From a virus: 64,000 bases of DNA. Shown in pieces: positions 16,401 to 32,208 of this stretch. The DNA is taken from positions 20,791-84,790 of the IMG/VR virus record IMGVR_UViG_3300046522_000512; one strand, written 5' to 3'. The translations under genes were made by a program, and so were the position numbers. Numbering within the stretch: position 1 is the stretch's first letter; every line of letters begins with the position of its first letter. The notes under the pieces were generated by a model, which was given only the letters and a program-made list of their open reading frames with translations, did not search any database and was not told the origin of the DNA.

Positions 16401-19400
16401 ACAGGGTGTCGGCGTCGATCTTGAACCCACCGACCGCCCACATCTTCACGATGTAGTCGAAGTCCATCGGCAGGTCTTGACCCGCGTCGCCCTTGGTGGG
16501 GTCGGACAGGTTCGCCCACATGCGGTCGGCGAGCGGCTTCACCGCGTCGAACAGGTCGCGGGCCTCCTGCGCCGTCTTGGCGCCGGTGATGTGCTGCGGG
16601 CCCATCTCCGCGTCCGACGACTTCGCCCACGTCTTAATCATCAGCTCGGCGACAGTCGCGGCACCGCCCGGGGCCAGATCCCGGTCCCCGGCCTTCACCG
16701 TGTCGTACCAGCGCATGCGGTCCGCGATCTGCTGCGCGGACAGCTTCTTGAACCCGCCCGCCTTGTGGTTGGGCAGACGGTTGTTCAGCCGCTTGTCCGC
16801 GACCTTCGCCGCGTACCCGTTGGCCGTCGAAGCGGTCAGGTTCTTCGCGTACTCGCCGCGGGCCTGCGCCTCGCGCGCCTCGTTCGCCACCGACCGGTTG
16901 AACGCGAGATAGACGATCTTCTTGCCCGGCATGCGGTGCGACAGCATCTTGAGCGTCGACGACTTGCCCGTACCGGCGAGCGCCATCACGGCCATGTTCA
17001 GGCCGCGGCGGGCCGCGCCCTCGATGATGATGCCCTGCTCCTCGGTGGGCGGGTACGCCTCGTTCGCCGCCGCCGCGGTGTCGATCCGCGCCCACTCCTC
17101 GTCGGAGTAGCCGCCCGCCTTGGCCGCGGGCAGGTCTTCCACCCGGTGCACCAGGCCGGTGGTCTCCGCGTCGTTCAGCCCGTACCCGGCCAGCCGGTCA
17201 CGGATGACGTCGCCGCGCTTGCGCGGGATGACCTTCCCGTCTTCGCCGTACTCGGGCGTCGGGCTCCACCGGCGCCGCTCCTCTTCCTCCAGCTCGAACC
17301 GGCGCTGCTCCAGACGGAGCCGGTACGCGAGATCGACGGAGTCGGTCGCGTCCTGCAGCGGCGCGATCTGCTCGTCGAGAGTGTCGATCTCCTCGCCGAT
17401 CTGGTCGCCGTCCATGTCGGCCGGCGGGGTGGCCGGGACCGGACGGGCATCCGACGGCGCGGACGGCCGCGGTGCCTTGCCAGCCGAGTCCGGGGCGCCC
17501 TGCTGCCTGGCGATCACGTCGCGGCGGTGACGCAGCTCTCGCTGAACGTCTGCCACCTGCGCCCCGAAGCGGCCAGAGCGCTCCTCCGGGGTCATCTCCT
17601 GGTCGTGCAGGGCATCAGCCAGGTGAAGGGCCGTCTCGCTCGCGGGGCCGAACACTCCGCCCGCGGCCTCACCCCACTGCTGGTCAAGGAACGTGAACAG
17701 CTCGTTGGACAGTTGTCCGACGCGGTCCCGCGGCTCGTCGCCGAACTGCTCCTGATAGCCCGCCTTCAGCGAATCGAGTGCGTGGCGGCTGGTCGCCTTG
17801 TTCTTGGCGAACAGGGCGCTCATCGGCAGGTCGCTGGACGCCGGGGCCGGCTGCGGGGCGTCGGCGGACCGCTGCCGCTCGGGCGCCTTCGTGACTCGAT
17901 TGAAGGGGATCGTCTCGCGGTCACCCGCGGGTCCGTCCACGACCACACCGTCATCGGTGGTCTCCACGACGGTGCCCAGCTTGCGCTGCGCGGGTCCGCT
18001 CTCGTCGTACCAGTAATGGACCTTGTCGCCGGATTCGAACTGCTTGCCGTCGTCCGCGGACGGAGTCGGCTGGGGCAGAGGCGTCGTCGGGGTACCGGCG
18101 GCAGGCGGGTTCTCCTCGAACACGCCGTCACGGGTCCGCCCCATGATGTCGATGTACGGCACTTCGCGTTCCGCGCCGTTGCGGCCACGGAGAACGGCCG
18201 TGTCCTGGTTGGCCGAGCGGACGAACTCGCCGCTCTGCTGCATGTTCATGGCGTTCCGGTTGGAGAAGGCCACGGTGTCACCGGGCTGGAAGTCGCCGTC
18301 CTGCCAGGCGCGGCCGGTGGAGGGCGCGTCGCTGCCCTTGGCCGGGGTTTCCGGCGCGGGGGCCGGGGTGCCCGTCAGGCTGCGCCGGAACTGCTCCTGC
18401 GCCTCCCGCTCGATGCGGTCGCGCTGCGCGTCCTCGCGGCGACGCTTCTCGACCGTCACCGCGTGGCGGGCAAGGTAGTCGTCGGTGACCCGCATGAAGT
18501 TGTCCAAGGGCGCCTCCATGCCCTGGCGGTCGGTGTCGGTCAGCCGGTTCCGCAGGCGCTGCGCGTCCTCGCGGGCACCGGCCAGAGATGCGGCCGTGTC
18601 CTCGGTGTCGCCGGACTCCTGCGCGGCGATGGCTTGGAACACGTTGTCGCGCAGCGAACGGGCCGGGGCGGGCATGTCCCGGCCCCACGTGGTCTCGGCC
18701 GCGCTGGTGACCTGACCCTGCGCGCCTTCCACTCCGGTGATGCCCGCGCGCCACTCGCGCTCGTTGGCGAACGGGCGCACCGTGTCGGCCGGCTTGGGGG
18801 CCGGGCGAGGGGCGGCCGGAGCCTGCGGGGCAGGCCTCGGGGATGGAGGCTGCGGCCCCGTTCCGGGCGTCCCGGACGCCTGCGGCGTCTGGCTGTTGCG
18901 TTCCTGGGGCGCCTCGTCGGCCGCGTCCAGGGCTGCGAGACGGGCCGTGCGGGCTTGTTCCCGCTCGTCGCGCAGAGCACGTGCCCGGCGCTCGCCTTCG
19001 GGCGTCATGACGTAGTACTTGATCGAGCCTCCGCCCACGCGGGGCTTGCTCCGCTCGTCGGCGTACCCGAGGCGGAGGAGGCGACGGATCACGTTCGGGT
19101 GGGCCTCGATCTGCTGGCCGTCGGGCCCGAGGCCCGAGTTCAGCGCGCTCTCAAGCGCGCGGGCCTGCGCGGTCGTCAGGCTCGGCTCGGCCTCGGGCTG
19201 CGAGGCCGGGGTCTCCTTGGGGGCGTCCTGGCCCTCGGGCTCGGCGCCGGTCCGGTCGGCGGCTGGGGATATCTCGGCGAGGTCGGCGCGGACCTTCTGC
19301 GGGTCCAGCGTGACCGTTTCGCCGCTGTTCTGGCCGCTGGGTGTCGAGGACTGTTCGGCGGCGGCGCGGGCGGCGCGGTTCTTCTCGCGGCGCTGCTGCT

Positions 19401-22400
19401 CACGCTCCAGCCCGGCGTGGCGGACCACGTCCTTGTCGCTGGCCTCGCCCTTCGCGATCCGCTCGGCGAGGGTGTCGGTCTCCTCCTTCAGGTCGGCATT
19501 GTTCATACCGAGGGCGTCCGGCTGCGCCGGGGCGGCCTGCGCACTGGACGACGTCCGCGCCAGGAACGCCTCACGCTTCGCGGCGAGCTTCTTCGCCCGC
19601 GCCGCGTCCCGGGCCTCGGTGGTGGGCCATATCCACTTCACGCGGCCCTTGTCGTCCTGCGAGATGGCAGGCGGGGCCGGTGTCTTGGGGACCAGGTTCA
19701 CATCCCGCGCGGCGACCTGCGCAAGGACGTCTTCCTGGTCGTTGGACATGGCGCGCAGTTCGGCGTCCAAGGCGGCGATCTGCTTGTTGCGCTTGGCGGT
19801 GTCCTCCTCGGTCACCGTGGGCTGCGCCTTCAGCCGCATAATCTCGTTGAGGAGGTCCAGTTGCCGGGTGGACTCCTCGAACACGGTGGCGAGTTCGAAC
19901 GGCTTCCCGATCCGGCCGGCTGCCTGCTCGGCGGCCCGCTTCTTGTCCGCGCGCCGGTGTTCGGCGCGCTTGATCCGCTCGTCGATGTTGGCGATCGAGT
20001 TCTCGATGCGGGACAGCGGCAGCGTGCGCGGCTTGCCGTCGTGGTCGATGAGCTCGTGGTCCTCGTAGTCCTGCCAGGCGCCCGGGACCTGGGGCAGGTC
20101 GACGCGGACCGTGTTGTACCACTGGTTGCCGATGCTGCGGGTACGGACGAACCGGGCGGTGACTTCCAGGCCGCCAACCCGGCCGATCGGGATACCGGCC
20201 GCATTCTCGTCGTACGGGCGGCGCATGCCGTCCGCGTACACCGCCCGCAGGGCCGTGTTCAGCGCGTTGCGGGCGTCGTCGCGGGCGTCTCCGCCCTCGA
20301 AGTCGGTGGTGCCGATGGTGGCGTTGAAGTCGTCGCCGCGGGTGGGCTTGCGCTTCTCGACAGCCTGCTGGAGCTGCGCGACGTACTGCTTGGTCCACTC
20401 CTCGGCCTGCGCGGAGTCGCGGATGGCCTCCTTGAAGCCCTCCTGGGAGCGCCGGTAGGCGTTGAAGCGGCCCCGCAGCCGGTTCACGAGCGGCTTGAGC
20501 TGCGCCTGGGCGATCAGGTGCGGGTCGCCGGCGGTGAGGGCGCTGACCTCGTCTGCGTCGAAGTTGACGGGGCCGATGTCCTCGACGACGCGCTCGGAGA
20601 GCGAGCCGCGCATGAGGGCCCGGATGAACTTCGCCTTACGGGCGATGGCTTCCCAGAACTTGGCGTCGGTGGACCGCTCGGTGGCGTACTGGAAGATGGC
20701 GACTTCGTCGTTGGCGTTGCCCTGCCGGATGACGCGGCCGTTGCGCTGGTCGACGTCGGCGGGCCGCCACGGGGCGTCCACGTGGTGCAGGGCAACGGCG
20801 CGGAGCTGGACGTTGGTTCCGGTGCCCATCTTGGCCGTGGACCCGAGCAAGACGGAGATCTTGCCGGAGCGGGCGTCGTTGAACAGGCGGGCCTTGGCCG
20901 CGTCGTCCTTCGCCTCGTGGATGAAACGTATCTGCTCGGCCGGGATGCCCCGGGCGATCAGGAGCGACTTCAGCTCGTCGTACGTGGAGAAGTCGGTGTA
21001 GGTCTCCTCGTCGTCGCGGGACAGCGACTCACTGCCGTCGTCGGTGAGGCTGGCGTCCATCTCGTCGGCGTCGGTGCCGCTGCCGGCCTTCTTCTTCCGC
21101 TTCTTGCTGCGGCCCGGGTCCTTCGGCGTGCCCAGGTCGAGGAAGACGATTTGCAGGCCGCCCGGCGTGTCGTGCGGGGTGGCGTCGGTCTTGCTCGTGG
21201 GGAAGACGGCGTCCTTCGTCTCCCCGTAGATCCGCACGACGTTGTCCGCGACCGTCGGCAGCTTGTTGCCGCCGCCGAGACTGGGGTCGAGAAGGCGCGG
21301 GTCGAGCGCGGCCATGCGGCCGTCGCCGAGGAGCTTGAGGTGGTTGTCCTCCTTCGGATCAACGTTGCCGCCCTCAAGGCGCGCTGCGCGGGCCCGGAGC
21401 AGTACCTCGTACTCCTCCTGCGCCGGGGACATCGGCATGGTGATCGTGACGGCCTTGCCGCCGACGATGCCCGGCACGGGAAGGTCGAGGTCTTCAGCCG
21501 TCTTGACGTCGGCGAACGAGCGCCACAGCCGCAGCAGCTCGGGCACGTTCTGGAACGCCGCCAGACGCGTCTTCTCCTTGTAGGAGCCGTCAGGGCTGCG
21601 CTCGACCGCGGAGACCATCTGCGCGAACGTGGACGCGAAGTCGTCGAAGTCCAGCATCCCGAGCTCTTCGAGCAGGTCGGGGCGCAGGTAGCGCATCATC
21701 GTGTGGACTTCAGCGATGCTGTTCGCGACGGGGGTGGCCGTCGCGAACGTCACGACACGGCCGGTGTCGGACCGCTTGCGCAGCCACTCCAGCTTCATTT
21801 CCAGGTCGGAGGCCCGGTTGGAACCGTCGATCGCCGCGACCGAGGACGGCGTGTCGAGGTTCTTGTACATGTGGGCTTCGTCGACCACGAGGTAGTCGAC
21901 GCCCATGTCCTCGAAGTGCAGGCCCGCAGCGTCTTTGAGGCCGCTGAGCTTCTTGTCCAGCTTCTCCTCAAGGCTCTTGAGGCTGGCCTCCATGCGCTTG
22001 ACGAGGCGGGTGTCGTTGCCTTCGCCGTCGGCGTCCTTCTGCCGGAGGATCTTTTCTCGCAGCCGCTCCACGCGGCGGCCGATGTAGTCCTCTTGGATCT
22101 CCGGGCGCATCTGGATCGACTCGAACGCGGTCTGCGTCAGGATGATCGCGTCGTAGTCACCGGCCGCGGCCCGAGCGATGAACTCGCGGCGGCCCTTGCC
22201 CGCCAGGTCTTCGCTGCTCGCGGTGAGGATCCGGTTGTTCGCAACGGACTCGGGGAAGATCTCCGCGAACTCGTGCCGGAACTGCTCCAGCATGTGCCCG
22301 GGGACGACCATCGCGGCCTTCTTCACCAGGCCCAGGCGCCGCAGCTCCATGACGCCCATGGCCATCTCGGCCGTTTTGCCTGCACCGACCTCGTGCGCCA

Positions 22401-25400
22401 GGAGCACGGACGGCTCATTGACCATCCGGGCGACGGCGGCGTGCTGGTGGGGGTGCGGGTCGAACCACTCGACCAGGCCGGGGATGGTGCGGCGCTGCCC
22501 GTCGTAGGAGCGCGGCGCCATCGAGTTGAAGTTGTCGTTGTAGAAGCGCTTGTGCTTCTCGGCGCGGTCGGGGTCGGCCCACAGCCAGTCCGTGAACGCC
22601 TCTCGCAGGAGGGTGGCCTTGGCCTGTGCGTCCTCGGTGGCGTCCTTGTCGTAGACGCTCTTGGCGTTCTCGCCGTGGCCTTCCTTCTTGGTGACGACGA
22701 TCTTGCGGTTGGTGAGGATCGCCTCGGCGATCTCCAGAGCGGTGTAGCCCTTCGCGCTCCACGTGTGTGCGGTGCGCTCCGCGATGCTCTTCTTCGCCCC
22801 GTCGGGGGCGTCGACCGCCCACAGGGCGCCGCCCTGCCAAGACACCGTGATCCGCTGGTCGCCGAGGGTCTCGCGGAGGAACTGTTCGACCGGCTCACGG
22901 CCGATCCAGGAAGCGCCCATCGGGGCGGCGATCTCGCCGGTGGACAGATCCGGCGGGACGACCCGCTCAAGGTGCTCGACGTTCAGGTCGTAACGGCTGT
23001 CGTCTGCCGCGGCGCGGCGGGCCTCATCGAGCTTCGTGCGGACGTTCCCCGACAGGTAGTCCGCGGCCGTGACGAGCTCGCCGTCCGGGGCCTGGAACGC
23101 CATCGGGTACTCGACGCCGGTGTCCGAGTCGACGGAACGAGCCGTCAGCAGTCGCGCGATGGCAGTGTCTGCGTCGGTGCGCATGACGCGGGCGAGGCCG
23201 TCGGCGGTCAGCCGGCCGTCGGTCTCCAGCACGATCGCAAGAGCGTCCTGCGGGTCGTCCGCGTACTTCGCGATCTCCCGGTACGTGCCAAGCCGCTTGC
23301 TGAAGATCGGCGCCTTGGTGGTCTTGCGGGTGGTGTCGTCGAACTCGTCGAGCGGCGTGATGTTCGACATCGTCGGGTCGTTGGTGAACAGGCCACCGCG
23401 CGCCGCCTTCTTGCGGTACGTCTTCTCGACCTTCTCCCCGGTGTCGGGGTCGATGGCGGTGCGCTTGGACCACGTGAACCGGTTGATGGCGCCGAACTTG
23501 GAGTGGTAGGCGTCGTACTGCTTGTTGAGCGCCTCCCGGAGTCGCTCGATCAGGGACTCGTCGGCGTCCTTGCGGTTCTCCTCCGCAAGGAGGGACTGGA
23601 ACGTGTCGCGGATCGCGAGGAGCTGCCGGGCCTCGTTCGCCTGCGTCTTGAAGACGGGGAAGGGGTGCACCATGCCGTCGCGGACCTGCGTGAAGGACCC
23701 GTCCGGTTCGGCCTGCACGTGCCCGTCGACCCGGGAGGAGCCGGGCGGCAGAAGCGTGACCTTGCTGCGGCCCTCCGTGTCGGGCTTGTAGGCGAGGCCT
23801 GCCGCCTTCGCCTCCTCGACGGTCCGCTTCAAGGCCCGTTCCAGGTTGGCGATGGTCTTGCCGTCGCCGTCCACGCGCAGCTCGTTGTCCCGGTGCATGC
23901 CGTGGCCGACCGCGAGCTTGCCGAGGATCTGCTGAGGGTTGTCGTGGAAGTAGCTGTTGTAGAAGACAGGCGGCTCGACCTGATCCGGCGGCGTGCCCGG
24001 CTTGGGCGGCGTCTGCCCGGGAAGGGCGTACGTGGGCAGGGAGTGCACCCACATCGGCGGGTCGTTCTGCGTCCGCTCCGACGGCCGCTTGATCTCACCC
24101 TTGCGGTTGCGGCCCGATGTGAACGACTTGCTCTTGTCGCGGCGCCGGAAGATCAGAAGGTCCGTCATCACCGACGTGCCCGCGGTGCGCTGGTGCGCGC
24201 CGGACGGCAGACGGATCGCGCCGACCAGCTCGCCCTTCTCCGCCATCTCCATACGGGCGGCCTCGCTGCGCCCGCCATGGCCGTCCATCGTCAGCGACGA
24301 CGTCACGACCGCGACCAGGCCGCCACCACGGGTCAAGTCCAGGGACTTGAGGATGAAATGGTTGTGGATCGAGTGGCCACCCTTGTTGTGCACCAGGTCG
24401 GGCACCTTGTACCGGCCGAATGGCACATTGCCGACCGCCGCATCGAAGGTGCCGTTGGGGGCGCGGGTGTCACCGAACGACTCGTGCCGGACCTCGGCGT
24501 GCGGGTAGAGGGCCTTCGCGATGCCCGCGGTGATCGAGTCGACCTCGACACCGGTCATGTGCGTGCCGTCGGGCGCGTAGCCGATGAAGTTGCCGACGCC
24601 GGATCCGGGCTCCAGCACACTGCCGGCGTCGAACCCGAGGTCGGTCAGGGCCGCCCACATCTGCTGCACGATCTGCGGGTCGGTGTAGTGCGCGTTCAGC
24701 GTGTTCGCGCTCGCGTCGGCCCACTCGGCATCGGACAGCAGCTCACGCAGCCGCTTCGCGAGCGGCTGGAACTGCGCATCCGGCTGCGGCTTGAAGATCT
24801 GGGGGACCGCACCCCACCCGGAGTACCGGGCGAGTTCCTGCTGCTCGGCCCCGGTCGCGGGACGGTTCTCGTCCTGGAGGCGGCGCAGGATCTCGATGGC
24901 GGCGATGTTCGCCTTGGCCCGGTTGACCGGGCTCGACGGAACGAGAGTCTTCCCGTCGGCAGGGGGCTCGTAGGCCGGAGCAGTGGCCTGCTGCTCCGGC
25001 GTACCGAACGCTACGGGAGCTGAGGCAGCTCCACCCGCGGCATGTCCTTCGTCTCCGTTCCCGGATCCTTCGGCATCCCGTACACCATGTCGTGCAGCAC
25101 CCGTTCCCGGGCCCGCATCCGGACCGACTTCAGCTCGCGAGCCCGCGCCACCGCGTCCGTGCCCTCCTGCAGCGGAGGAGCCCACTCCTCCGTCAGTTCC
25201 TCGATCTGCTGCACGATCTCGTCCGACCGCTCCCGGGCGAACTCCTCGAACGCCTTGTCCGTCGGGAACCGATCCACTTCCAGCGGCCGGTACGTCTTCC
25301 AGAACGTCCGAACGAGATCCACGTACGACACTGTCATTGCTCCTCTTGTGCTGTTCGGACAGGGCCTGTCGAGCGACGCTCACGTTCTCACGCGCCAGGC

Positions 25401-28400
25401 GCAGGAACTCGGCCGCATGGGCATGGTTGGCGCCGCCGCGGCCGCGCAGGGCGCGCTGCATTCCGTCGAGGGCGCCTTGGAACTGCTGGATGGCTTCCGA
25501 CGGCGTGATGTCACCGCGCTTCAGCGCGTCCACGGCGTCACCGGCAGGCGCCGCCAGGTCGTGCGCGGCGGGCGCTCCACGCAGCTCGGTCAGACTGTTG
25601 ATGACCGGGCCGAGCTGCTGCTCCGCCACATCGAGCGCTTCCACGATGTGGTTGCCCGCGGCGGTGGTAGCCGCCATGTCGGCCAGGCTCGGGCCCTGGT
25701 CGGCGTTGGGGGCCGGCTGCGGGGCCGCCTCGGGGGCCGGGGCGGGGGCGTGGTCGGTGTCGTGCTCGCGCACCAGGTCCGCGAGGGCCGCCTCCTCGGT
25801 GAGGAACGGCTTCTTGGAGCTGTAGCGGGTGCCGTGACCGAGCCGGTTCCACGTCCAGCGACCCGCAGAGCCCTGGAGCGTGGCGTCGTCCTGGTTGCCG
25901 CCATCGACGGCGGCGGGGCGGTGGCCCGACTCATTGTGCGCGCCGAGCTGGACGCGGGAGAGCTGCTGTGCGTACGCCTGTCCGTCGCGGCGCTGGGCCT
26001 CGGCGAGGATCGCCGTCTTCTCAGCCTGGGCGCGGGCCCTCTTCGCCTGGTCGCCGGAGGACAGGGTGTCAGACCAATCCTGGTCGGCCTTCGCAAAGGC
26101 GGCGTCGAGGTCCTCGCGCGACACCTGCGACCAATCCCGCTGCTCGGGCTTCGCCTGCGGGGCGTCGGGGTTCGGGGTGTTGGTGCGGTCGCCCGCGTAC
26201 GGGGTGCCGTCGGGGCGGGTGATGTCCTTCAGCGCGTGGGAACGCGTGCCCCGCTCGGCGCGCACGAGCACAGAGCCGGAGTCGCGGTTTACGGCCATGA
26301 CCGAGCCGACACCGTCAGGCGAGTTGACCTCGTCGCCGTTGTTGGGGAAGTCGCCTTCCGGCGTGGCCTGCGGGGCGCTCGGCGCGGCCGCGGCCGGGGT
26401 AGCCGCAGGGGCCGGGGCGGGCTTGTTCTGCTGCTCCTGCCGCTTGCGGTACTCGTTCGCGGCGTGGGACTCCGGGGCGCCGTGGGCGATGTCCCACTGG
26501 CCCCGCTGGTCGTCCATCTGGTTGCCGAAGGCCCGGCTCCACACCCCGACCCGGTGCCGCTCGCGGGGGCCCAGCTTCGGATCCCACCAGTCGACTTCCT
26601 GGTCCGGGTTGGACGACTCGCGCACCCCGCGGCCGACCTGCATGGCGAACTGGCTGGCATCCTCCCAGGACTTGAAGCCCTGCCCTGCGCCGCCGGACCA
26701 GCCGAGGGCTCTGCCGTCGTAGGCGCGGTGCACATCGAACCGGTGGGGGCCGCGCTGGACGATCGCGAAGCCGAAGTGGTTGGCCATGGTGACGTTCCAC
26801 TTGGGGTTGCCCGCCATGGCGCGCACCCCATCGCTGTACACGCGATCCAGGCCCGGGGCGCCGCCGTTCTTCCAGTACTCGCGCAGCTCACCGGTGTTGC
26901 CGGGCTTACGGAAGCCGACCTTGTCGTCGCCGTTGTTGCCGCTCGGTCCGACGTGGCCGACGGCGATGTTCTGCCGGGGGATGCCAGAGGTGTCGGCGAT
27001 GGACTGCGCGGCCTGCACGAGCGGGTTCGGCCGCTCGGTCGGGGCCGCGGGAGCCGCGGGAACGGCCGGGGCCGGGGCCGGCGGGAGGACGGCGGGGGTC
27101 GCGGGAGCGGGCGTGTTCCTCGCGGCCGCGCCCTCACGCTTCTTCGCGGCCTTGTCCGCGAATACCTTCTTCGCCTCCACGCTGGCCTGGCGCACCATCT
27201 CCTGGCCCTCGGGAGACTCCAGGCGCTGGTGATAGCCGGGGCTGTCCCAGTCGAACGGCTTGTCGCCGAGCTGGGCGGCCTCCAGGCGGTTCGCGAAGTC
27301 GACGGCTTCGCCCTTGCGCTCCGACATGGCCAGGCGGACGCCGCTGCCGGAGACGATGACCGCGTATCCGGTCTTGCGCTGGCCGTTCTTCTCCACGGTC
27401 ATCTTGGCGATGACGAACCGGCCGCCGCGGGAGAGCTGCGGCCTGTCGAGCTTGGCGAACAGTGCGGCGGTTTCCCGCTGGTGCCGCTCCTGCTGGGCCT
27501 TGTCCTGCGTGTACGGCTCCAGATTGCCCTTCCGCCAGTAGGCCTGAAGCTCGTCGAGGTTCTTGAAGAGTTTGCCGCCCAGGGCGCTGGCCGGTCTGGC
27601 TGCCTGCGGCCGCATGGGCATGCTCGTGTTGCCTTCACCCGGGGGCAGGCCTCCGCGAGAGCCGGGGCCCTTCTGGGGGCCGTCGGAGCGCCAGGCCCGG
27701 GGAACGAGCGGCTGACTCTTCGGGCGGTTCTTCCTCGGCGCGGGGATCGGCTCGTTGCCGTGACTGGTGAAGCGCTCGTGAGCGAGGCGCAGCGCGTCAC
27801 GCAGGTTGGCGGCGTACCGGGCAACCTCGTCCTGGCCGTCGTTGTGGGCGATCTCCGACAGCTGGTTGGCCTCGTCCGCGAGCCAAGACAGGCGTTCCAC
27901 GTCGTCCGGGTTGAGCTGGTCGTTCTTGTCGTCCCGGACGTCGAATCCGGTACCGGCGTCGGCCAGGCTGTCGTACAGCTCGTCGGCTTTGGCGTTGTGC
28001 CAGTTCGCCGGCCAGACGCCTTCCAGGTCCCCGAAGTACTCCTCACTCAAGTCGCGCACGGCGCGCCGGGCGTGGCTGGTGTCCCAGAACTGGTGGAAGT
28101 GGTCGTCTACCGGGGGGCCGGCGGCGCGCAGCGCATCACCGTTGCCCATGACGTGCCGCTCGTGGGGGGTGTCGTCCGCGTTCCTGTCGATGGGCAGCAG
28201 GTCGGGGAAGCTCGGCATGGCGACGTTGCCGCGCCGCCGGGGCGGCAGAGGGTCGCCGTCGTTGTCGTGGATGTTCGTCATGACGCGGCCCTGCGGGACG
28301 AGCGGCTGATCGTCGTCGTGGTTCGGGTCATCGGGGCCGGCGCCGAGATCCTGGCCCTCGATGTCCTGGCCGATCGGCTTGCCCTGGTCGTCGCGCTCGT

Positions 28401-28839
28401 GGACGGTGTCCGGGGTCTGGCCGTTGTCACCGCGGTCGTTGGCGGGGTGGTCGGCGCCCTCGGCTGTGTCGTCCTTCGCCGGGTCGTGCGGGCCGTGGCC
28501 AAGCCCGCGGTTCTCATCGCCGTAGCGCCGCTCGTCCTCGTCGCGGACCTTGGACTTGCTCTTGGTCGGCGCGGAGCCGTCCGGGCGGCTGACCATGGTC
28601 AAGCGGGCGGCGTTGATGCGGGAACGCTGGTGGGTGGCCAGGTTCTCCACGAGGACGTCGCGGCCACCGAGCGCGCGCAGGACGCGGGCCATGCCGCCGC
28701 CCCACATGCGGGCGATACCGCCCGTTTCCACGAACCTGCCCTTGGAGTCACGGGGGTGCAGATCCGGGTTCCACGTGCGGCGCAGCCTCTTGGTTTCGAG
28801 GCTGGCGAGGATGCGGTCTACGGCGGTGGTGATCGGCAT
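4408..28839 (-). CDS. Giant (~8143 aa) polyvalent protein: DarB-like N6-adenine methyltransferase + SNF2 helicase, SF1/UvrD-like helicase, repeated beta-barrel domains, degenerate zincin-like C-terminus
   Basis: MTase LEPGSGVG (~24600) and GNVPFG (~24430); SNF2 HEVGAGKT (~22385), VDEAH (~21880), QRNGRVIRQGN (~20735); SF1 ALAGTGKS (~16975), DEAQD (~16390), VGDSNQAIYGFRGA, HKSKGLE, YVAVTRA (~15305); leaderless ATG at 28839 set by the class I promoter. Confidence 0.92.
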   Translation of the reverse strand: MPITTAVDRILASLETKRLRRTWNPDLHPRDSKGRFVETGGIARMWGGGMARVLRALGGRDVLVENLATHQRSRINAARLTMVSRPDGSAPTKSKSKVRDEDERRYGDENRGLGHGPHDPAKDDTAEGADHPANDRGDNGQTPDTVHERDDQGKPIGQDIEGQDLGAGPDDPNHDDDQPLVPQGRVMTNIHDNDGDPLPPRRRGNVAMPSFPDLLPIDRNADDTPHERHVMGNGDALRAAGPPVDDHFHQFWDTSHARRAVRDLSEEYFGDLEGVWPANWHNAKADELYDSLADAGTGFDVRDDKNDQLNPDDVERLSWLADEANQLSEIAHNDGQDEVARYAANLRDALRLAHERFTSHGNEPIPAPRKNRPKSQPLVPRAWRSDGPQKGPGSRGGLPPGEGNTSMPMRPQAARPASALGGKLFKNLDELQAYWRKGNLEPYTQDKAQQERHQRETAALFAKLDRPQLSRGGRFVIAKMTVEKNGQRKTGYAVIVSGSGVRLAMSERKGEAVDFANRLEAAQLGDKPFDWDSPGYHQRLESPEGQEMVRQASVEAKKVFADKAAKKREGAAARNTPAPATPAVLPPAPAPAVPAAPAAPTERPNPLVQAAQSIADTSGIPRQNIAVGHVGPSGNNGDDKVGFRKPGNTGELREYWKNGGAPGLDRVYSDGVRAMAGNPKWNVTMANHFGFAIVQRGPHRFDVHRAYDGRALGWSGGAGQGFKSWEDASQFAMQVGRGVRESSNPDQEVDWWDPKLGPRERHRVGVWSRAFGNQMDDQRGQWDIAHGAPESHAANEYRKRQEQQNKPAPAPAATPAAAAPSAPQATPEGDFPNNGDEVNSPDGVGSVMAVNRDSGSVLVRAERGTRSHALKDITRPDGTPYAGDRTNTPNPDAPQAKPEQRDWSQVSREDLDAAFAKADQDWSDTLSSGDQAKRARAQAEKTAILAEAQRRDGQAYAQQLSRVQLGAHNESGHRPAAVDGGNQDDATLQGSAGRWTWNRLGHGTRYSSKKPFLTEEAALADLVREHDTDHAPAPAPEAAPQPAPNADQGPSLADMAATTAAGNHIVEALDVAEQQLGPVINSLTELRGAPAAHDLAAPAGDAVDALKRGDITPSEAIQQFQGALDGMQRALRGRGGANHAHAAEFLRLARENVSVARQALSEQHKRSNDSVVRGSRSDVLEDVPAAGSGSVPDGQGVRGVRPGAVGRDRAADRGTDGGVGSSAAGGHGRGGAGSRAEVGPDAGPGTGAARHGVRDAEGSGNGDEGHAAGGAASAPVAFGTPEQQATAPAYEPPADGKTLVPSSPVNRAKANIAAIEILRRLQDENRPATGAEQQELARYSGWGAVPQIFKPQPDAQFQPLAKRLRELLSDAEWADASANTLNAHYTDPQIVQQMWAALTDLGFDAGSVLEPGSGVGNFIGYAPDGTHMTGVEVDSITAGIAKALYPHAEVRHESFGDTRAPNGTFDAAVGNVPFGRYKVPDLVHNKGGHSIHNHFILKSLDLTRGGGLVAVVTSSLTMDGHGGRSEAARMEMAEKGELVGAIRLPSGAHQRTAGTSVMTDLLIFRRRDKSKSFTSGRNRKGEIKRPSERTQNDPPMWVHSLPTYALPGQTPPKPGTPPDQVEPPVFYNSYFHDNPQQILGKLAVGHGMHRDNELRVDGDGKTIANLERALKRTVEEAKAAGLAYKPDTEGRSKVTLLPPGSSRVDGHVQAEPDGSFTQVRDGMVHPFPVFKTQANEARQLLAIRDTFQSLLAEENRKDADESLIERLREALNKQYDAYHSKFGAINRFTWSKRTAIDPDTGEKVEKTYRKKAARGGLFTNDPTMSNITPLDEFDDTTRKTTKAPIFSKRLGTYREIAKYADDPQDALAIVLETDGRLTADGLARVMRTDADTAIARLLTARSVDSDTGVEYPMAFQAPDGELVTAADYLSGNVRTKLDEARRAAADDSRYDLNVEHLERVVPPDLSTGEIAAPMGASWIGREPVEQFLRETLGDQRITVSWQGGALWAVDAPDGAKKSIAERTAHTWSAKGYTALEIAEAILTNRKIVVTKKEGHGENAKSVYDKDATEDAQAKATLLREAFTDWLWADPDRAEKHKRFYNDNFNSMAPRSYDGQRRTIPGLVEWFDPHPHQHAAVARMVNEPSVLLAHEVGAGKTAEMAMGVMELRRLGLVKKAAMVVPGHMLEQFRHEFAEIFPESVANNRILTASSEDLAGKGRREFIARAAAGDYDAIILTQTAFESIQMRPEIQEDYIGRRVERLREKILRQKDADGEGNDTRLVKRMEASLKSLEEKLDKKLSGLKDAAGLHFEDMGVDYLVVDEAHMYKNLDTPSSVAAIDGSNRASDLEMKLEWLRKRSDTGRVVTFATATPVANSIAEVHTMMRYLRPDLLEELGMLDFDDFASTFAQMVSAVERSPDGSYKEKTRLAAFQNVPELLRLWRSFADVKTAEDLDLPVPGIVGGKAVTITMPMSPAQEEYEVLLRARAARLEGGNVDPKEDNHLKLLGDGRMAALDPRLLDPSLGGGNKLPTVADNVVRIYGETKDAVFPTSKTDATPHDTPGGLQIVFLDLGTPKDPGRSKKRKKKAGSGTDADEMDASLTDDGSESLSRDDEETYTDFSTYDELKSLLIARGIPAEQIRFIHEAKDDAAKARLFNDARSGKISVLLGSTAKMGTGTNVQLRAVALHHVDAPWRPADVDQRNGRVIRQGNANDEVAIFQYATERSTDAKFWEAIARKAKFIRALMRGSLSERVVEDIGPVNFDADEVSALTAGDPHLIAQAQLKPLVNRLRGRFNAYRRSQEGFKEAIRDSAQAEEWTKQYVAQLQQAVEKRKPTRGDDFNATIGTTDFEGGDARDDARNALNTALRAVYADGMRRPYDENAAGIPIGRVGGLEVTARFVRTRSIGNQWYNTVRVDLPQVPGAWQDYEDHELIDHDGKPRTLPLSRIENSIANIDERIKRAEHRRADKKRAAEQAAGRIGKPFELATVFEESTRQLDLLNEIMRLKAQPTVTEEDTAKRNKQIAALDAELRAMSNDQEDVLAQVAARDVNLVPKTPAPPAISQDDKGRVKWIWPTTEARDAARAKKLAAKREAFLARTSSSAQAAPAQPDALGMNNADLKEETDTLAERIAKGEASDKDVVRHAGLEREQQRREKNRAARAAAEQSSTPSGQNSGETVTLDPQKVRADLAEISPAADRTGAEPEGQDAPKETPASQPEAEPSLTTAQARALESALNSGLGPDGQQIEAHPNVIRRLLRLGYADERSKPRVGGGSIKYYVMTPEGERRARALRDEREQARTARLAALDAADEAPQERNSQTPQASGTPGTGPQPPSPRPAPQAPAAPRPAPKPADTVRPFANEREWRAGITGVEGAQGQVTSAAETTWGRDMPAPARSLRDNVFQAIAAQESGDTEDTAASLAGAREDAQRLRNRLTDTDRQGMEAPLDNFMRVTDDYLARHAVTVEKRRREDAQRDRIEREAQEQFRRSLTGTPAPAPETPAKGSDAPSTGRAWQDGDFQPGDTVAFSNRNAMNMQQSGEFVRSANQDTAVLRGRNGAEREVPYIDIMGRTRDGVFEENPPAAGTPTTPLPQPTPSADDGKQFESGDKVHYWYDESGPAQRKLGTVVETTDDGVVVDGPAGDRETIPFNRVTKAPERQRSADAPQPAPASSDLPMSALFAKNKATSRHALDSLKAGYQEQFGDEPRDRVGQLSNELFTFLDQQWGEAAGGVFGPASETALHLADALHDQEMTPEERSGRFGAQVADVQRELRHRRDVIARQQGAPDSAGKAPRPSAPSDARPVPATPPADMDGDQIGEEIDTLDEQIAPLQDATDSVDLAYRLRLEQRRFELEEEERRRWSPTPEYGEDGKVIPRKRGDVIRDRLAGYGLNDAETTGLVHRVEDLPAAKAGGYSDEEWARIDTAAAANEAYPPTEEQGIIIEGAARRGLNMAVMALAGTGKSSTLKMLSHRMPGKKIVYLAFNRSVANEAREAQARGEYAKNLTASTANGYAAKVADKRLNNRLPNHKAGGFKKLSAQQIADRMRWYDTVKAGDRDLAPGGAATVAELMIKTWAKSSDAEMGPQHITGAKTAQEARDLFDAVKPLADRMWANLSDPTKGDAGQDLPMDFDYIVKMWAVGGFKIDADTLYWDEAQDVNPVMEGVVRAAIDQGVQVVAVGDSNQAIYGFRGASDALSKLPVDARATLTQSFRFGPAVANVGNRFLRLLGTRMRLKGFDRKDSRLGNIKPGDETMVIARTNAGVALAAVEALAAGRTIAVSGGVKDLQEFVTAARALANGERTSHAELARFNGKSYEDILDEVNSDPELQQLKSLFALLDKHPDEIDKLMESGAQAADTENVGGRVWVTLDWNDPKVDQLKRWLGDAKTNGVGKLLYDRESRRYYYEPGKRTESFTKNGRTINYQVDNKLSLEDAKAKIDAHLAKLYPQEDTGGGRLVDEKKPHDLLVTTAHKSKGLESEKVRIADDFRGPEYDDNGHIKWDTVPEDEDLRVAYVAVTRATDVLDAGSLGWVFEAVNDGDPTQPPTGEYRRDWVLDDFKPGDRINFQEEDGTPQVGEVARLDGPGLIARYDVDGQQREQYIGTAQVQRRNGQDRPQLPVASEDELNQAVAEGRYPEASGGAPAKLDAGKVRDELAALKNDQPSPETTEPRKEANTGSPAAPDPATGIITGDQVPPGPDATAADKEAYRRRFDIRYQVGYYVDYRNDDGETVTARVVNTRGNPILRDDAGHEFRADPNWYADHFIAVRKDDGSALPRPAWADTLPDGFRAVPPNEIQPGHVIREGSSSDKLWGSRFVMAKTVDEDGRTTLYTAQLATQGGGGLGLDPRQLVVLDETEESRQLAEEALHRRDVKESAKLQGLTLPTELPAGPNRQAQEGSTAREWHNGDTAVTPNGEGRVILAEDGKVVVLDGGGAPRTYEPRQLSMPGEARTAEHNAPTAQEAARGEKRQQDLESAQTPEGLGLFYGARLANLDLEEGHGQVLDEDGNVVGWIRRRGTVWHGQDARGGQTGGGTAQSASDPLYGPREAAQAVDSNRRDNGMRVALKDTAWRHLRPEEGRDTVQYSELSDAQREEFFKLAKEWAKSSDHELSEAAKHWGQGGLNYRQMNRLAEEATATADSVDASTPEGRRRQAVLQRLADKIRAQASRAWHSWQTMPPPGEPDVPRDVDAPDWVPYGHRETSKTDAPVKLDAAQVRTELADLNGSDSSPAADGDPGKASPEPEADGETIDADQARINDYVRVEVSDTLDRTRVHEGYLLANPRKGKGHRPRHGDFDAWILYIGNGPNQSPGRGNQVDIPADQKIQRLPAPEAPALGPVDIDSVKPGQYIRATVPDADGNEVTREGYVVSAAARRDGPRRDDPVMSWQVHIADTPHAVHAWDDVIEVPAGHEVERMSPPGPVPELEIPDVPGLDLSEYTRPDQKEVDEYRKWAGVWANPAPDGPRNALLDRVKNMPGPASRPLSPKAAPRWIGDAGDAFPLDQFDENTRHLLAQYDGDQRDFLAGHAASMREATQRLAGEFRAASREIMIPRIATRSGMKDAAEKLGALWAGDSERSRQVVLDQIAAAVADADRHGLTEQQVKDFLVGVAGGDDPEQRANGLTGAFPEVGRSLSSASDDVKAYYAGFHAWRGQNDDQSFSGYHHYNNRRSALGGEYLPVADPRTGDGQFIVGEAELPDGMRWTRLQNLKPGDLYRPARGYYAKDNRFDGLDAAHVVVNLHADGKEGRPRTTSLSTGSHTEHPGDWVVHLTAPEPALRKKANAKLRDKWVKKENEDDARKWEAAQAISRRPDGEAADVASLQEGERLRVRGSNEFIGGIYVAEGDLLEPPERAQMWRGGSQVDGWRLLLSTHGHAGDHIYVADGESDEWAERLSRDTNAPETGASGTNAPETGESQTNEPGTDEPKPDESGDGEPKPDESENNDDRDRRRRRRNQLGNGAPNGGGGGLPGGLGMGLPNFPDSSTPSTGSGRGRGDGSGRTPAGTGQADNANPAAGLPDEFAALRQRYDGDMVPASEIQVGDWVHIVGADQMYNEPKHLVGRVLHTRQFNGGVRIEVESRDPLKGGDAVQRESAALYDGELAERLPEGNPGREDTSDLKRRMETWEERASASRVPVPEGWQAVDGSRIQPRIGDRFRIVARQDGKRTQHMNVVVERSNDWQGDGYWKVKNQARRFHPSDIVAIPEGADVQYRTDVPEPAESTPQRPERTPSVPDISDEPRAEIVNPNEPQRGDRVRVETQNTAGSKVTREGFLLAPARSVTATRDGERLKAWRLHLSDNPDAKPNVRNGVTILADDKVARLPDTDAPAAGGADVPREGGATPVGGQDGASSSNAPSAGGSDAPGAGDGQGAAPTGDAPAPTSQYGINAAHGEGRRAGTVDGRRIPTHDELRQYQTGENGIISEEGERALFGSPERIQELAAQGFTPSPKLVSDHGREEVWRNGRLIGSVRAPHTTGFYMTPPEERWEGEMPLGNHYHNGTFSTRDAAIAHLVLRDMEQGEPDLSIVHPDIAWDFRGSNLSLGFPPEEEGLRGLESLNDNPADMERYRKIRALADALGRGETISGNVADDLDHLHDELRWLDATHYKYQPADLKHKHILGPGWLADEIRDYLDVLRPEDPRAMHHEISKARASKQFLDDLVDEGGKDRAESVPVTDLRAGDIVDLDGRITNRYPGATTRRTGYVVGEPRPASITINKKRQKAVRIHVASSVVGAHQLAGDTFVIPVGDNAQRLMSADDVNLPVEEYRYGRQVGEAPEVAPQRATSSGDNTPAPAEERPAAAPNTPAPAPAPVPAEERPAPAKETPAPAPAKETPAPAPAKETPAPAPAEDRPAPAAKTPAPAKERPAPAEETPKPSADKAEPERPAVPEPVHGRPAEWVKVSDIRQGDVVRIDGITKGGTARTLAGYVMDGPTEVPTVRARRVQDMVRVLIAETPDGSTKRESVWVKPDATAARATREIGDEATTVQTGADSDVLTGRVADRVATDGGGNGLFPGSVVTDDDGREGVVVGANSAGVRVQFGDDRTDDAHEPSTLNVIDGGAARPSGWTTDGHRVNVGNWVSDRDGNMLGTVEELDGDTATVATTEGMKPMPVTDLRVIGDTDNNGQDGTPAAQRRKEPITSREPAPTVEPVTGPTVDPELAPEERDAVADRGTAPGDAPEAQQGAARIARDLPVTPEQAAAIAEGLRQNADPSTAEGRAAKRAADRLDQAAGQTGTSNDDGGMTTEARYLSTGDVIVAPVNGEPSRLLVVEGIRSEDGKTVNLLLANADGRFISDSVGARAPFRPLPYDSALEGGGVADQADRRIVKATELKPGDHLVFGTGANGSDWFTRKVQSVSVGDKQVTVELEGLAGRPSTTRTFQILGGSLAESVSVMDRERPAAAWFAANQRRLTGEADAPNPDADSAPAGRPEPGTVGSVGVGDTIALPDETNPDEMASYRVTDVQDAPGGLRVLTVEDGNGQRSERTMAAGDPLYQLPEPQVPADDDAEARDPNAGLDTAAFTADYGDLVARAVVDAAVEGTQTPGSIHQLREQIAAKVTAGALRSAMRRVQRDAQAVVDGSGITGDERERLLAELRRMAMRSRIDAVQAAVQTLDDLEPLDGESPEDTAARAADLLRLIPESLRNRSESDEPDLDTGVGDGDGSADGEATPEPDAGAGSPVDDEVQGHVDGAVGEALRDADTGLLTPERRAAIVARLAQRMADSRDGAAQRIAAQLPEGERPGMLARITAALVQIARRVVELVAAFLKGLAAAVAYPFKAINRFRKGLVRRVRSWPETRRLRRIAAAARSLPRHGDGMSLADQVAHWARLLPAPGHFGQVSRRRRWYRLATRSSLAAGQLPGVQDGTGWTMDRAADRGPGRHALRHLAAVRAAGTDVDADVVARLMAAAPELGDDPHGTVRHARRYQDRAEARVRNLRAVAAGQGAPDLGPEIAAAQVEAQHARQEADRLHQAYTAALPGAVRDTLAQVREMGPGGRNRLTLSHSSDPAAARALADAAGYVPREWLADRTARFVTAVDGDAGSYDADSGTATVADLGDGGRGTAVNALVAHLQRSYPDLLAAQEVFGFTRTHTGRPGARRSTLDALLERLFGGRAEDVTDDQIVARGLATMFSGDWYRDDDLRAFLLGLLATR
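8200..8500 (-). repeat. Tandem 27-bp-type repeats encoding PAPAPAKET/EERPAPA linker
   Basis: Repeated ggggccggggtctccttggccggagcc units. Confidence 0.85.
25011..25337 (-). CDS. Nested out-of-frame gene within the giant ORF (TnpV-like small helical protein)
   Basis: AGAGGAG RBS 8 nt before GTG (ATG-ACA-GTG); globular composition; the host frame here is G/R/A-rich low complexity. Confidence 0.65.
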   Translation of the reverse strand: MTVSYVDLVRTFWKTYRPLEVDRFPTDKAFEEFARERSDEIVQQIEELTEEWAPPLQEGTDAVARARELKSVRMRARERVLHDMVYGMPKDPGTETKDMPRVELPQLP

Positions 28840-28846
28840 GCGGCGG

Positions 28847-28877
28847 ACCATGCACACCGGGGATGGTTAACGTCGCG
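28847..28877 (-). promoter_or_regulatory. Class I (late-type) promoter of the giant gene
   Basis: CGCGACGTTAA-N14-CATGGT-N7-ATG; one of 8 copies. Confidence 0.75.
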
Positions 28878-29749: not shown

Positions 29750-32208
29750 CACAGGTCGCCGCTTTCGGTGGTGCGGTAGCGCAAGCGGCACCGGCAGTTG
29801 ATCGTCAGGTGGAGGGGGGCGAGCTGATCGCCGGGGAAGCGCATGGCGAAGCCGCCGACGTCGTACGGCTTGCCGACGGGCAGGGTGGTGCCGTCTACGG
29901 CCTGGTGGGCGGCGCGTACGCGGTCGTCGCGGCGGGTGACCCAGGTGCGTTCGATGCCGGGGCTGATCGCCGCGGCGGTGGCTTCCGCGGTGCCGTTGAC
30001 GGTGGCGACGGCCGCCATCTCCGCCATCCCGGACGCGGTCTGTGCGGCCTGGTCGCCGAACGCGGTGCGTACGAGCGCGACCAGGTCGTCTATGTCGTCG
30101 GTGACGTCCTGCGCCTGAGTCAGCAGGGTTGCCGCGCTGTCCAGGAAGCCGCGGGCGATGTCCTCGGCGGCCGCCACGGCGTCGAGGACCGCGGCGGTGA
30201 TGCGCTGCGAGGCCTCCGCCGGTACCCGCGGGGCGCCGAATGCGGCCATGGTGCGATCCGCTGTGGCGGCTGCGACCCGGGCGAGGATCCGGGCGAGGGT
30301 TCCGGTGACCTCGTCGAGCCACCGGTCGGCGCCGATGACCCGGGTCACGTCGAGTGCCGTGTCCCCGCCGCGCCGGTCCTCGGGGCCTGTCGGCTTCCAG
30401 AACTTGGTGCCCTTGCGGGCCTTGGGGGAGCGCAGCCGGGCGGTGACGACGCCTTCCTGCCGGGCGAACAGTGACTCCAGTGCGAGCGCTATCGCCTCTT
30501 GCGCCCGGTCGTAGTCGTCGTCTGTGACCTCGTACGAGGGCCGGTCGACGACCTTGAAGGGGAGGGCCTTCGTCTGGATGCCGCGGGCTTCGTCGACGGC
30601 GGCCGCGGCCGGGCCGGGCTCGGCTTGTACGTCCTGCCCCATGCGGGCTTCTGCGACTGCTGCGGCGGCCTCCCCGGGGCCGGCGGGCAGGTCTTGACCC
30701 ATGCGGGCGTCGGCGACGGCCGCAGCCGCCGCACCACTGCCGTCCAGCGCGGGAGTGCCGGCGGGCTGTCCGCCGTCGGCGCGGGCCTGCGCCACCGCGT
30801 CGGCTGCCGCCCCGTTGCCGCCGGGCTGCGCCGACGGGTCGATGGGTGCGTTCGGGCCGCCGGGCGGCATGCCGGGGACGGCTTGGGAGCCGCCGCCCTG
30901 GATGCCGAGCGCCGCGGCGTCGGAGGGGAGCAGCGGGACGGGGGCCTTCTGCGGGGAGATCCACAGGGCTCGGGAGTGGGGGTTGTTGAACGGGGTGAGT
31001 CCGGCGCGGCGCCGGTACTCGTCGATGGAGATGAGTCCCTTGTCGAACTCCTCGCGGGCCTCCTGGCGGCGCTTGCGGCGGGGGAGTTCGAGGGCCTGGA
31101 CGGTGGAGGTGTTGTAGCGAATCCCCAGGTCGTCTCCGCCGAGGTCTCCGGCGAACGCGTCGGAGATGAGCGCCAGGTGGCCGAGCTCGGTGTGGACCCA
31201 GAACCCGTACTCTTCCTGCTCCGCGTTGTCGAAGGTGCGGCCCGACGCGTTGCCGGTGACGGACTCCGGGACGCCGAACGCCCCAAGGATCTCGATCTTG
31301 GAGTTCATCGCGGCGTGCTCGTAGGCCATCTCGCGCGGCCGGGCCGCCAAGTCGACGTAGTTCATGCCGCCGGGGCCCGCGCCGACCACGGACACGTGCC
31401 CGGCGAACTCCGAGCCGGGCAGGAACCGGGCCTCAAGGCGGTCCATGTCCTTGTCGGACAGGCTGCTCGTGTCGACGGCGACGATGCCGCCGGGCCTCGC
31501 GTCGTTCTTTATGAACGCCACGTTGTACAGCCGGGACAGGTGGTCGAGTTCGATGCTGATGCCCGCGGCTTCGAGCGGTGTCTGCCCGGAGAACGGGTCG
31601 GTGGGATGCGGCTCGCGGATCCAGCGGACCCGCTCCGGTTCGAGTTCGCGGACGTGCCCGAACAGGGTCGTGAACTGGAAGTGCTTGATGTACTCGCCCT
31701 TGTCGTCCGGGATGGGGATGACCCGGTCGGGCGGAAGGAGGTCGAGGCGGGTGATGGTGCCGCGGTTGGACCGGGTCACCTCAACGAACGCACCCCGCTT
31801 GGACAGCAGGATCTGGGCGGAGAGCCGCTTTCGGAACTGCGACCCGCTCTCCAGCGGGTTGGCCTTGGGCCCGTTCAGGAGCCGCAGGAGCGGATGGTCG
31901 TCGATGACCTCCTCGAACTCGCCGTCTTCGGTGAGGCCGCGCCCGATCTCCAAGGGGAGGCGGGCGGCGTGCTTGCCCATGGTGTCGATCGCCTTGTAGA
32001 CCCAGACGACGCGCTCATACCCCTCGGTGACGACGCGCCCGAGATCCCAGCCGTCGGCGCGGCCCTCGGTCCCCCACACGTTGCTCGTACCGGCGTACTG
32101 GGTGGAGGTGTAGCCGCCCGTCCACGCGATCGTTTTCGACTCGGCGGGCTGTAGGGCCTGGTTGGCAATCAGGTTTCGCAGAGCTGGTAGCCAGCGGCGT
32201 CGGGCCAT
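29749..32208 (-). CDS. Phage portal protein fused to a MuF/minor head domain
   Basis: HK97-like portal motifs (PNPLESG-like, NDARPGG, AFGVP); C-terminal WVTRRDDRVRAAH...PGD...INCRC. Confidence 0.9.
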   Translation of the reverse strand: MARRRWLPALRNLIANQALQPAESKTIAWTGGYTSTQYAGTSNVWGTEGRADGWDLGRVVTEGYERVVWVYKAIDTMGKHAARLPLEIGRGLTEDGEFEEVIDDHPLLRLLNGPKANPLESGSQFRKRLSAQILLSKRGAFVEVTRSNRGTITRLDLLPPDRVIPIPDDKGEYIKHFQFTTLFGHVRELEPERVRWIREPHPTDPFSGQTPLEAAGISIELDHLSRLYNVAFIKNDARPGGIVAVDTSSLSDKDMDRLEARFLPGSEFAGHVSVVGAGPGGMNYVDLAARPREMAYEHAAMNSKIEILGAFGVPESVTGNASGRTFDNAEQEEYGFWVHTELGHLALISDAFAGDLGGDDLGIRYNTSTVQALELPRRKRRQEAREEFDKGLISIDEYRRRAGLTPFNNPHSRALWISPQKAPVPLLPSDAAALGIQGGGSQAVPGMPPGGPNAPIDPSAQPGGNGAAADAVAQARADGGQPAGTPALDGSGAAAAAVADARMGQDLPAGPGEAAAAVAEARMGQDVQAEPGPAAAAVDEARGIQTKALPFKVVDRPSYEVTDDDYDRAQEAIALALESLFARQEGVVTARLRSPKARKGTKFWKPTGPEDRRGGDTALDVTRVIGADRWLDEVTGTLARILARVAAATADRTMAAFGAPRVPAEASQRITAAVLDAVAAAEDIARGFLDSAATLLTQAQDVTDDIDDLVALVRTAFGDQAAQTASGMAEMAAVATVNGTAEATAAAISPGIERTWVTRRDDRVRAAHQAVDGTTLPVGKPYDVGGFAMRFPGDQLAPLHLTINCRCRLRYRTTESGDL

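Follow-up and report, generated by a model that had tools for sequence, protein, structure and literature searches.

Small genes that lie out of frame within larger ones are known from bacteria and phages. In Bacillus subtilis, comS lies out of frame and on the same strand within srfAB, begins at its own internal start and spans 46 codons, and it is confined to close relatives of B. subtilis. In phage lambda, Rz1 is embedded in the +1 frame of Rz, both products are made and act together, and both frames are constrained. Here we describe a locus in a 64,000-nucleotide (nt) stretch of a virus (positions 20,791 to 84,790 of IMG/VR record IMGVR_UViG_3300046522_000512; this whole stretch is called the window), where an open reading frame (ORF) for a protein of 108 amino acids (aa) lies wholly inside a giant ORF, on the same strand and in another frame, with both frames open. 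The giant ORF encodes a polyvalent protein with a DNA methyltransferase (MTase) and an SNF2-type helicase, related to DarB of phage P1, and the small protein resembles the TnpV family. We consider it highly probable that this is a genuine same-strand nested gene pair whose two frames are read from one mRNA. The locus is a new case of a known class, that of overprinted nested genes, and the breadth of its conservation is unusual.

What the locus shares with comS/srfAB is a small gene out of frame within a very large multidomain ORF. It differs in that the nested gene has 90 to 240 codons, is the older reading and occurs phylum-wide, and in that the host frame is an unconstrained linker rather than an enzyme domain. 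With Rz/Rz1 it shares a gene fully embedded in the +1 frame of another gene, in a phage; the difference is that here only the nested frame is constrained and that the element, a phage-plasmid of the 100-kb class, has no obvious shortage of coding space. Overprinted genes of the phiX174 type invite the same comparison as the Rz1/Rz pair (for a review, PMC8227390).

In actinophages, an HNH endonuclease is encoded out of frame within an insertion, the “ShiLan domain,” of DNA methylase genes (PMC11855218). That element is a patchy homing insertion with no recognisable ribosome-binding site, and the host frame across it is open and predicted to form a harmless loop (PMC11855218). The present locus resembles it in having an out-of-frame ORF inside a phage DNA MTase gene whose frame stays open. 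However, the TnpV-like gene has a fixed position, is found at 93 to 96 of 99 loci, is preceded by a Shine-Dalgarno (SD) site and is not a nuclease. DarB of phage P1 belongs to the polyvalent proteins with a methylase-SWI2/SNF2 dyad (PMC5512222), and in the giant protein an adenine MTase is likewise followed by a SWI2/SNF2 ATPase in one polypeptide. The two are further alike as giant multidomain MTase and SNF2 proteins encoded in a head module beside a portal-MuF gene, with relatives on conjugative elements; packaging of the giant protein described here into virions is putative. The words TnpV, overlapping and frameshift do not occur in the text of PMC5512222, and a limited literature search returned nothing relevant on TnpV together with SNF2 or methyltransferase and no description of the nested pair. 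A preprint (10.1101/724807) describes long same-strand overlaps as thought to be almost absent from prokaryotic genomes. Gene callers forbid such overlaps; in the present family, complete nesting has persisted at about 90 loci belonging to many actinobacterial families.

The pair and its signals in the window are as follows.

4408-28857, minus strand: giant ORF, 8149 codons, stop-free, encoding the polyvalent DarB-like protein
25011-25337, minus strand: nested ORF, 108 aa plus stop, in the +1 frame relative to the giant ORF
25011-25338, minus strand: giant-frame segment that overprints the nested gene, without a stop, rich in Gly, Ala, Arg, Asp and Val, with a G+C content at third codon positions (GC3) of 0.31-0.45
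25340-25347, minus strand: SD-like sequence AAGAGGAG, preceding the nested ATG at 25337 and sitting within giant-frame coding sequence
25329-25331, minus strand: alternative GTG start of the nested ORF, two codons past the ATG, with an SD spacing better than that of the ATG
25339-28857, minus strand: N-terminal extension of the giant protein, about 1170 aa, beginning with a conserved ...DLHPRDSKGRFVETGG motif

We looked at base composition by frame. Flanking the overlap on either side, the giant frame has a GC3 of about 0.9, which falls to its low values exactly over 25340-25011, where the nested frame has a GC3 of 0.84 and a G+C content at second positions of 0.44. This frame-specific composition is the clearest signal at the single locus: the codon-usage signal shifts from the giant frame to the nested frame. 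A preliminary description of the locus, made from the window alone, had credited the nested ORF with normal codon bias. This holds for the high GC3 and not for the overuse of G-ending codons (third-position G of 0.68 in the nested frame versus 0.38 in the flanks). It had also called the giant frame over the same bases a Gly/Arg/Ala/Val-rich linker that nevertheless stays open, as it does, with Asp to be added to the list. The coding statistics of the N-terminal extension are those of real coding sequence (GC3 of about 0.9), and the giant frame runs on from it into the overlap in frame and without a stop. As far as sequence can tell, both frames of the 25011-25337 stretch are almost certainly used.

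Next, we surveyed 99 loci, among them plasmids of Micromonospora, Gordonia, Rhodococcus, Thermobifida and Streptomyces and 80 genome loci, the latter found with an alignment of the MTase N-terminal region out of at least 587 genome matches. Homologues of the small protein, 26 to 94% identical to it, occupied the same nested position in 12 phage-plasmid loci of the Streptomyces type, two of which are complete plasmids with giant genes of 5247 and 6289 codons, each following a portal gene. In all 12, the small ORF lay in the +1 frame of an open giant ORF, with a start codon behind an SD-like site; gene callers report the small protein among these relatives solely from contigs that hold a truncated giant ORF. 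Across the survey, 93 of the 99 loci, or 96 after one iteration, had a profile match to the small protein just upstream of the MTase region. The preliminary description had presented the small gene as a frequent upstream partner of MTase-SNF2 genes, and the survey makes it a regular, near-universal one. The nested gene is 90 to 240 codons long across the family, and the overlap 300 to 600 nt. Relative to the MTase frame, the small gene was offset by +1 at 86 of the 93 loci that carry it, and this relation was constant even though the spacing from the small-gene stop to the MTase match varied. An insertion of the intein or intron type was considered as well and rejected, since the gene sits at a fixed position, is nearly universal and has no splicing or nuclease domains.

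We then asked how often the MTase frame would stay open across the small gene by chance, resampling each small gene synonymously with the codon usage of its own locus. The MTase frame was open across the whole homologous domain in 85 of the 86 same-frame loci, against 24.6 expected. Clustering of the small proteins (single linkage, 50% identity) gave 22 clusters. In 19 of them the state is nested with an open big frame; multiplied together, the probabilities that these 19 are open by chance give 10^-13.9. These counts bear on the possibility that the open giant frame is a by-product of high G+C content, in which case the extension, the small gene and the MTase-helicase would be three separate products and the MTase-helicase would start, unrecognised, after the small gene. 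Taken by itself, the window locus has a chance probability of an open frame of 0.34, and a single locus therefore proves nothing; in addition, the annotation pipeline PGAP calls short forms of the cassette (described below) as two adjacent genes. However, the extension is stop-free throughout, so its ribosomes must continue into the overlap, and neither the excess of open loci nor the constant frame relation is expected by chance. Moreover, a codon shift described below is restricted to nested copies, and at locus L016 the homology to the MTase begins upstream of the annotated start, so that the annotation cuts it off. Taken together, we regard chance openness, and with it a hidden downstream start, as highly improbable.

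The start signals of the nested gene were also conserved. An SD site with a length of 4 nt or more preceded the nested start in 72 of 85 loci, compared with 14% of background triplets. The GTG at 25331 corresponds to the sole nested start available in loci L005 and L006.

To estimate selection in the two frames, as the preliminary description had proposed, we used an OLGenie-style count over 19 phylogenetically disjoint pairs. The nested frame was under purifying selection (dNN/dSN = 0.41, 95% confidence interval [CI] 0.29 to 0.56), and the big frame showed no amino-acid constraint in the overlap (dNN/dNS = 0.99, 95% CI 0.78 to 1.25). The use of the big frame is therefore argued only from stop avoidance, frame conservation, the codon shift and the coding sequence on its flanks. 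The same result weighs on the possibility that the nested ORF is a relic or silent in this element, with the giant frame alone expressed and the small ORF open by shared ancestry. This would agree with the short spacing between the internal SD site and the ATG, and ribosomes elongating in the giant frame could impede internal initiation. Against it stand the purifying selection on the nested frame with none on the giant frame, the codon usage that tracks the nested frame, the retention of ORF, start and SD site in phage-plasmid lineages down to 26 to 38% protein identity, the frequency of the SD site over background and the confidently predicted fold of the product, and we judge a silent relic to be very unlikely. 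The converse candidate, that the giant frame is the only real frame, was rejected on GC3, the pattern of selection and the fold. The preliminary description had proposed a dual-coding region with a real nested gene, and the evidence of conservation, purifying selection, SD site with start codon, and fold is stronger than it had indicated.

The big frame also marks the synonymous choices made in the small gene, as seen from the third base at 4-fold codons.

Nested small genes: G 0.61, C 0.29
Five separate-gene relatives: G 0.24, C 0.63
MTase domain: G 0.37, C 0.51

The small gene thus prefers G-ending codons where it is nested and C-ending codons where it is separate. A third-position G in the nested frame is a first-position G in the big frame, where it gives Gly, Ala, Asp, Glu or Val and avoids the T-initial stops. 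The overlap peptide is made up of 24% Gly, 15% Ala, 12% Arg, 10% Asp and 10% Pro, and its simplest reading is that of a flexible linker that needs only to stay open and soluble. At the 4-fold sites of the overlap, we found no additional site-specific constraint beyond composition.

We also evaluated the 62 short loci, which do not have the long N-terminal extension. Here too, no stop interrupts the MTase-helicase frame along the whole length of the small gene, and this frame opens just 80 to 350 nt before the small-protein domain. In 60 of the 62, the big frame has a start codon of its own 75 to 180 nt upstream of the small ORF start, in many cases an ATG with an SD site, and in 38 of the 62 there is no big-frame ATG, GTG or TTG from the small-gene stop to the first conserved MTase residues. 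A leader encoded from that upstream start, of the form MARRRR...GQLSLxxLW, is conserved across families (27 loci inspected); it lies outside the overlap, and its conservation is therefore independent evidence that the big ORF begins there. This leader, MARRRR(x)nGQLSL(E/D)xLW in fuller form, is unannotated at L025:5296-5428, L028:5308-5437, L047:5557-5632, L078:5548-5629 and about 20 more short-form loci, and it is possibly a transfer signal. The short forms adjoin genes for a type IV coupling protein, DUF4913 and a relaxase.

The upstream continuation of the big frame bears on a further explanation, a programmed -1 frameshift of the kind known from dnaX, IS3 OrfAB and the phage G/GT pair. Translation would start at the small ORF and a fraction of ribosomes would slip near its end, giving a TnpV-MTase-helicase fusion in addition to the free TnpV-like protein. 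The MTase frame is indeed at -1 relative to the small ORF in those same 86 of 93 loci, exactly as this would require. However, no X_XXY_YYZ heptamer occurs in the nested ORF of the window, and the 16 of 85 loci that do have one all have the G/C type. Furthermore, a frameshift does not account for the openness of the MTase frame over the full small gene or for its continuation upstream, either as a leader with its own start or as a 1170-codon extension. We therefore hold frameshifting to be very unlikely.

Because the short loci are already open across the small gene and have their own upstream start, the overlap is old and widespread. We placed the loci on a FastTree phylogeny of the MTase region, midpoint rooted for drawing only, on which the direction of change is a parsimony argument. 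The nested state was found throughout the tree, and long N-terminal extensions appeared in at least three clades, including the clade of 14 that holds the window. These results indicate that the small gene and the MTase-helicase are old partners, that their overlap predates the giant gene and that the long extensions were added upstream of an existing overlap in at least three clades. The preliminary description had envisaged an ancestral two-gene cassette absorbed by read-through; as stated, this is not supported for the element, as the 62 short loci overlap already, and absorption at best fits the deep origin of the overprinted linker. The regular state of the MTase-helicase cassette in conjugative plasmids, integrative and conjugative elements and phage-plasmids of Actinomycetota is the nested one.

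Truly separate genes were limited to one small clade and a few broken-looking loci. Four separate-gene loci formed a single clade in the tree, and the other exceptions were singletons beside nested relatives, such as L070, the sister of nested L002; both L070 and L089 look like broken loci. Standalone copies of the small gene occur at L017 and in the group of L026, L038, L044, L049 and L080. In this group, the separate small gene encodes a protein with a conserved C-terminal extension of about 90 aa (...TEWLxTTADALxDG...LDYxxPSFLRxLGTSVEDLRAxGRxL). The MTase has its own N-terminal region of about 230 to 270 residues in L038 (MYQTPGQL...) and L044, and a shorter one in L026, L049 and L080. At L017:6889-7665, on plasmid pTH1 of Thermobifida halotolerans, the small gene is intact and the MTase frame closes after about 260 codons, with the first 60 or so conserved residues left; this looks like the remnant of a big gene beside its surviving partner gene.

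In the reading that we favour, that of a nested pair, the long mRNA of the giant DarB-like MTase-SNF2-helicase gene would be read in two frames over 25011-25338. Ribosomes from the giant start would pass straight through, making an unconstrained Gly/Ala/Arg/Asp-rich linker that would connect the N-terminal extension of about 1170 aa to the MTase. Other ribosomes would initiate at the internal SD site and the ATG or GTG in the +1 frame and would make the 108-aa acidic, helical, TnpV-like protein as a separate product. The small gene is taken as the older reading because the codon-usage signal and the amino-acid constraint lie with it. The big frame would have been overprinted on it and selected only for openness and for small or charged residues through first-position G, and the phage-plasmid lineage would have put a long N-terminal extension ahead of the existing nested cassette. 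Made in cis, the small protein may cooperate with the MTase-helicase, acting for instance as its chaperone, its adaptor or its inhibitor. Such a locus offers a natural example of a polyvalent protein growing across an intervening gene without losing that gene, with the alternative frame becoming a linker.

A wider proposal is more speculative, and we think it doubtful rather than likely: that this is a previously unannotated, phylum-wide dual-coding module, in which a linker overprinted on the partner gene fastens the MTase-helicase to a delivery signal at its N terminus. In it, the acidic TnpV-like protein, translated in cis from the same mRNA, would keep the enzyme under control up to its transfer along with the DNA, and the nesting would be functional and not a historical accident. 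The delivery signal would be the MARRRR...GQLSLxxLW leader in conjugative forms or the long extension in capsid-borne forms, the TnpV-like protein would be a dedicated chaperone, adaptor or inhibitor, and nesting itself would fix obligatory co-expression and stoichiometry.

Several points weigh against the nested-pair reading. Openness of the giant frame in the window is, as given above, well within reach of chance, and the loci are phylogenetically related, so that raw counts overstate their independence and the cluster test corrects for this only roughly. The big frame carries no amino-acid constraint within the overlap. The start-codon argument from the short forms ignores rare non-canonical starts. 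In the window, the spacing from SD site to ATG is short (2 to 4 nt), and the better-spaced start is the GTG. Translation of both frames is inferred from the sequence evidence set out here.

We also assessed whether the nested arrangement could be an artefact, with compensating frameshifts from assembly or sequencing error having faked an out-of-frame ORF or a read-through. In its favour, the window is a metagenome assembly. However, contigs from four rhizosphere metagenome runs, each assembled independently, span 25022-25422 free of indels, and over 24916-25700 they also agree without one. In a co-occurring strain variant, substitutions are the only differences, and neither frame is closed. 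The same frame relation recurs in some 90 further assemblies as well as in complete plasmid records, and the chance of an assembly error is in our view negligible. Outside the overlap, at 24740-24745 in the MTase N-terminal region, a strain variant from one run carries a frame-restoring +1/-1 pair of indels 5 nt apart.

The small protein is acidic (isoelectric point [pI] of 5.0) and TnpV-like with four helices, and all examined family members are acidic (pI mostly 4.1 to 5.2). AlphaFold2, run with 45 sequences, predicted a four-helix bundle followed by a C-terminal tail (predicted local distance difference test score [pLDDT] of 92, predicted template-modelling score of 0.82), in keeping with the helical character anticipated in the preliminary description. 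Its suggestion of TnpV likeness stands at the level of remote homology: against PF14198 (TnpV), the window protein scored 15.8 bits (E value = 0.014), below the 27-bit gathering threshold, and TnpV was the top family for 19 of 45 members at an E value of 0.1 or less (best, 1.6e-5), constantly over one part of the profile. The small protein thus appears to be a remote homologue of TnpV and not a member. TnpV proteins are small proteins of Firmicutes transposons and integrative and conjugative elements; the small protein resembles them in size, in helical character and in its repeated weak match over the C-terminal two thirds of the TnpV model, and it differs in coming from an actinobacterial family outside Pfam coverage. 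A fold search with the AlphaFold2 model against the PDB and BFVD gave no match at an E value of 0.001 or less, a profile search of PDB sequences gave no match, PHROGs gave no significant family, and tblastn against a phage GenBank collection gave no match. A search for in-frame fused forms among longer proteins turned up a single one, of 461 aa, which hints that in-frame fusions are rare. The survey flags the TnpV-like protein as a near-universal partner of DarB-like anti-restriction enzymes.

The remaining domains of the giant protein and its neighbouring genes are as follows.

24229-24483, minus strand: Eco57I-like N6-adenine MTase core, sub-threshold Pfam match (E value = 0.0029)
21337-22449, minus strand: SNF2-related ATPase domain, PF00176, 30.4 bits, over the cut-off
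20719-20979, minus strand: helicase C-terminal domain, PF00271, 28.1 bits, over the cut-off
29752-32208, minus strand: portal protein with a fused MuF-like domain, encoded just upstream of the giant gene
354-2333, minus strand: prohead serine protease (Peptidase_S78) gene; the giant gene lies between it and the portal-MuF gene

The conserved N-terminal region of the MTase starts near 24950, directly past the nested stop, and the MTase motifs are conserved in alignments of the MTase region. ResIII is also above the Pfam cut-off in the giant protein, with UvrD-like parts further on, and its first 1280 or so residues, overlap included, have no Pfam match. The true start of the giant ORF is likely the ATG at 28851 or 28839 (MVRRMPI...). 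The portal-MuF gene lies directly upstream, and the giant gene is therefore placed in the head module; the order of portal and then giant gene is also seen in the Streptomyces phage-plasmids L001 and L002. The window has a G+C content of about 70% and comes from a virus record.

The nesting has consequences for annotation. In the giant forms, the small gene goes unannotated, and L001 and L002 list the helicase gene alone. For the short forms, annotated MTase-helicase starts probably lie too far downstream, so that the conserved leader is lost (L016, L008 and L009). On pVMKU of Micromonospora maris (L008:2238-3287), about 400 unannotated codons with a GC3 of 0.84 to 0.98 lie upstream of the small gene in the MTase frame, and two opposite-strand “hypothetical” coding sequences, probably spurious, are annotated in their place.

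Near the N terminus of the giant protein, the motif DLHPRDSKGRF(V/I)ETGG (28717-28764, minus strand) is almost invariant across the phage-plasmid relatives, and the Nonomuraea locus L022 has a similar motif, DDDLHPRDRKGRFIETN. An ORF of 3837 codons on the opposite strand (13510-25023, plus strand) keeps codon register with the giant gene. Its stops would be sense TTA, CTA or TCA codons, which makes it look like a shadow cast by the codon bias of the giant gene; its end, at 25021-25023, falls within the overlap, at a point where the giant frame leaves that bias and uses TCA. The prohead protease (354-2333, minus strand) is fused to a 2H phosphoesterase/2'-5' RNA ligase-like domain.

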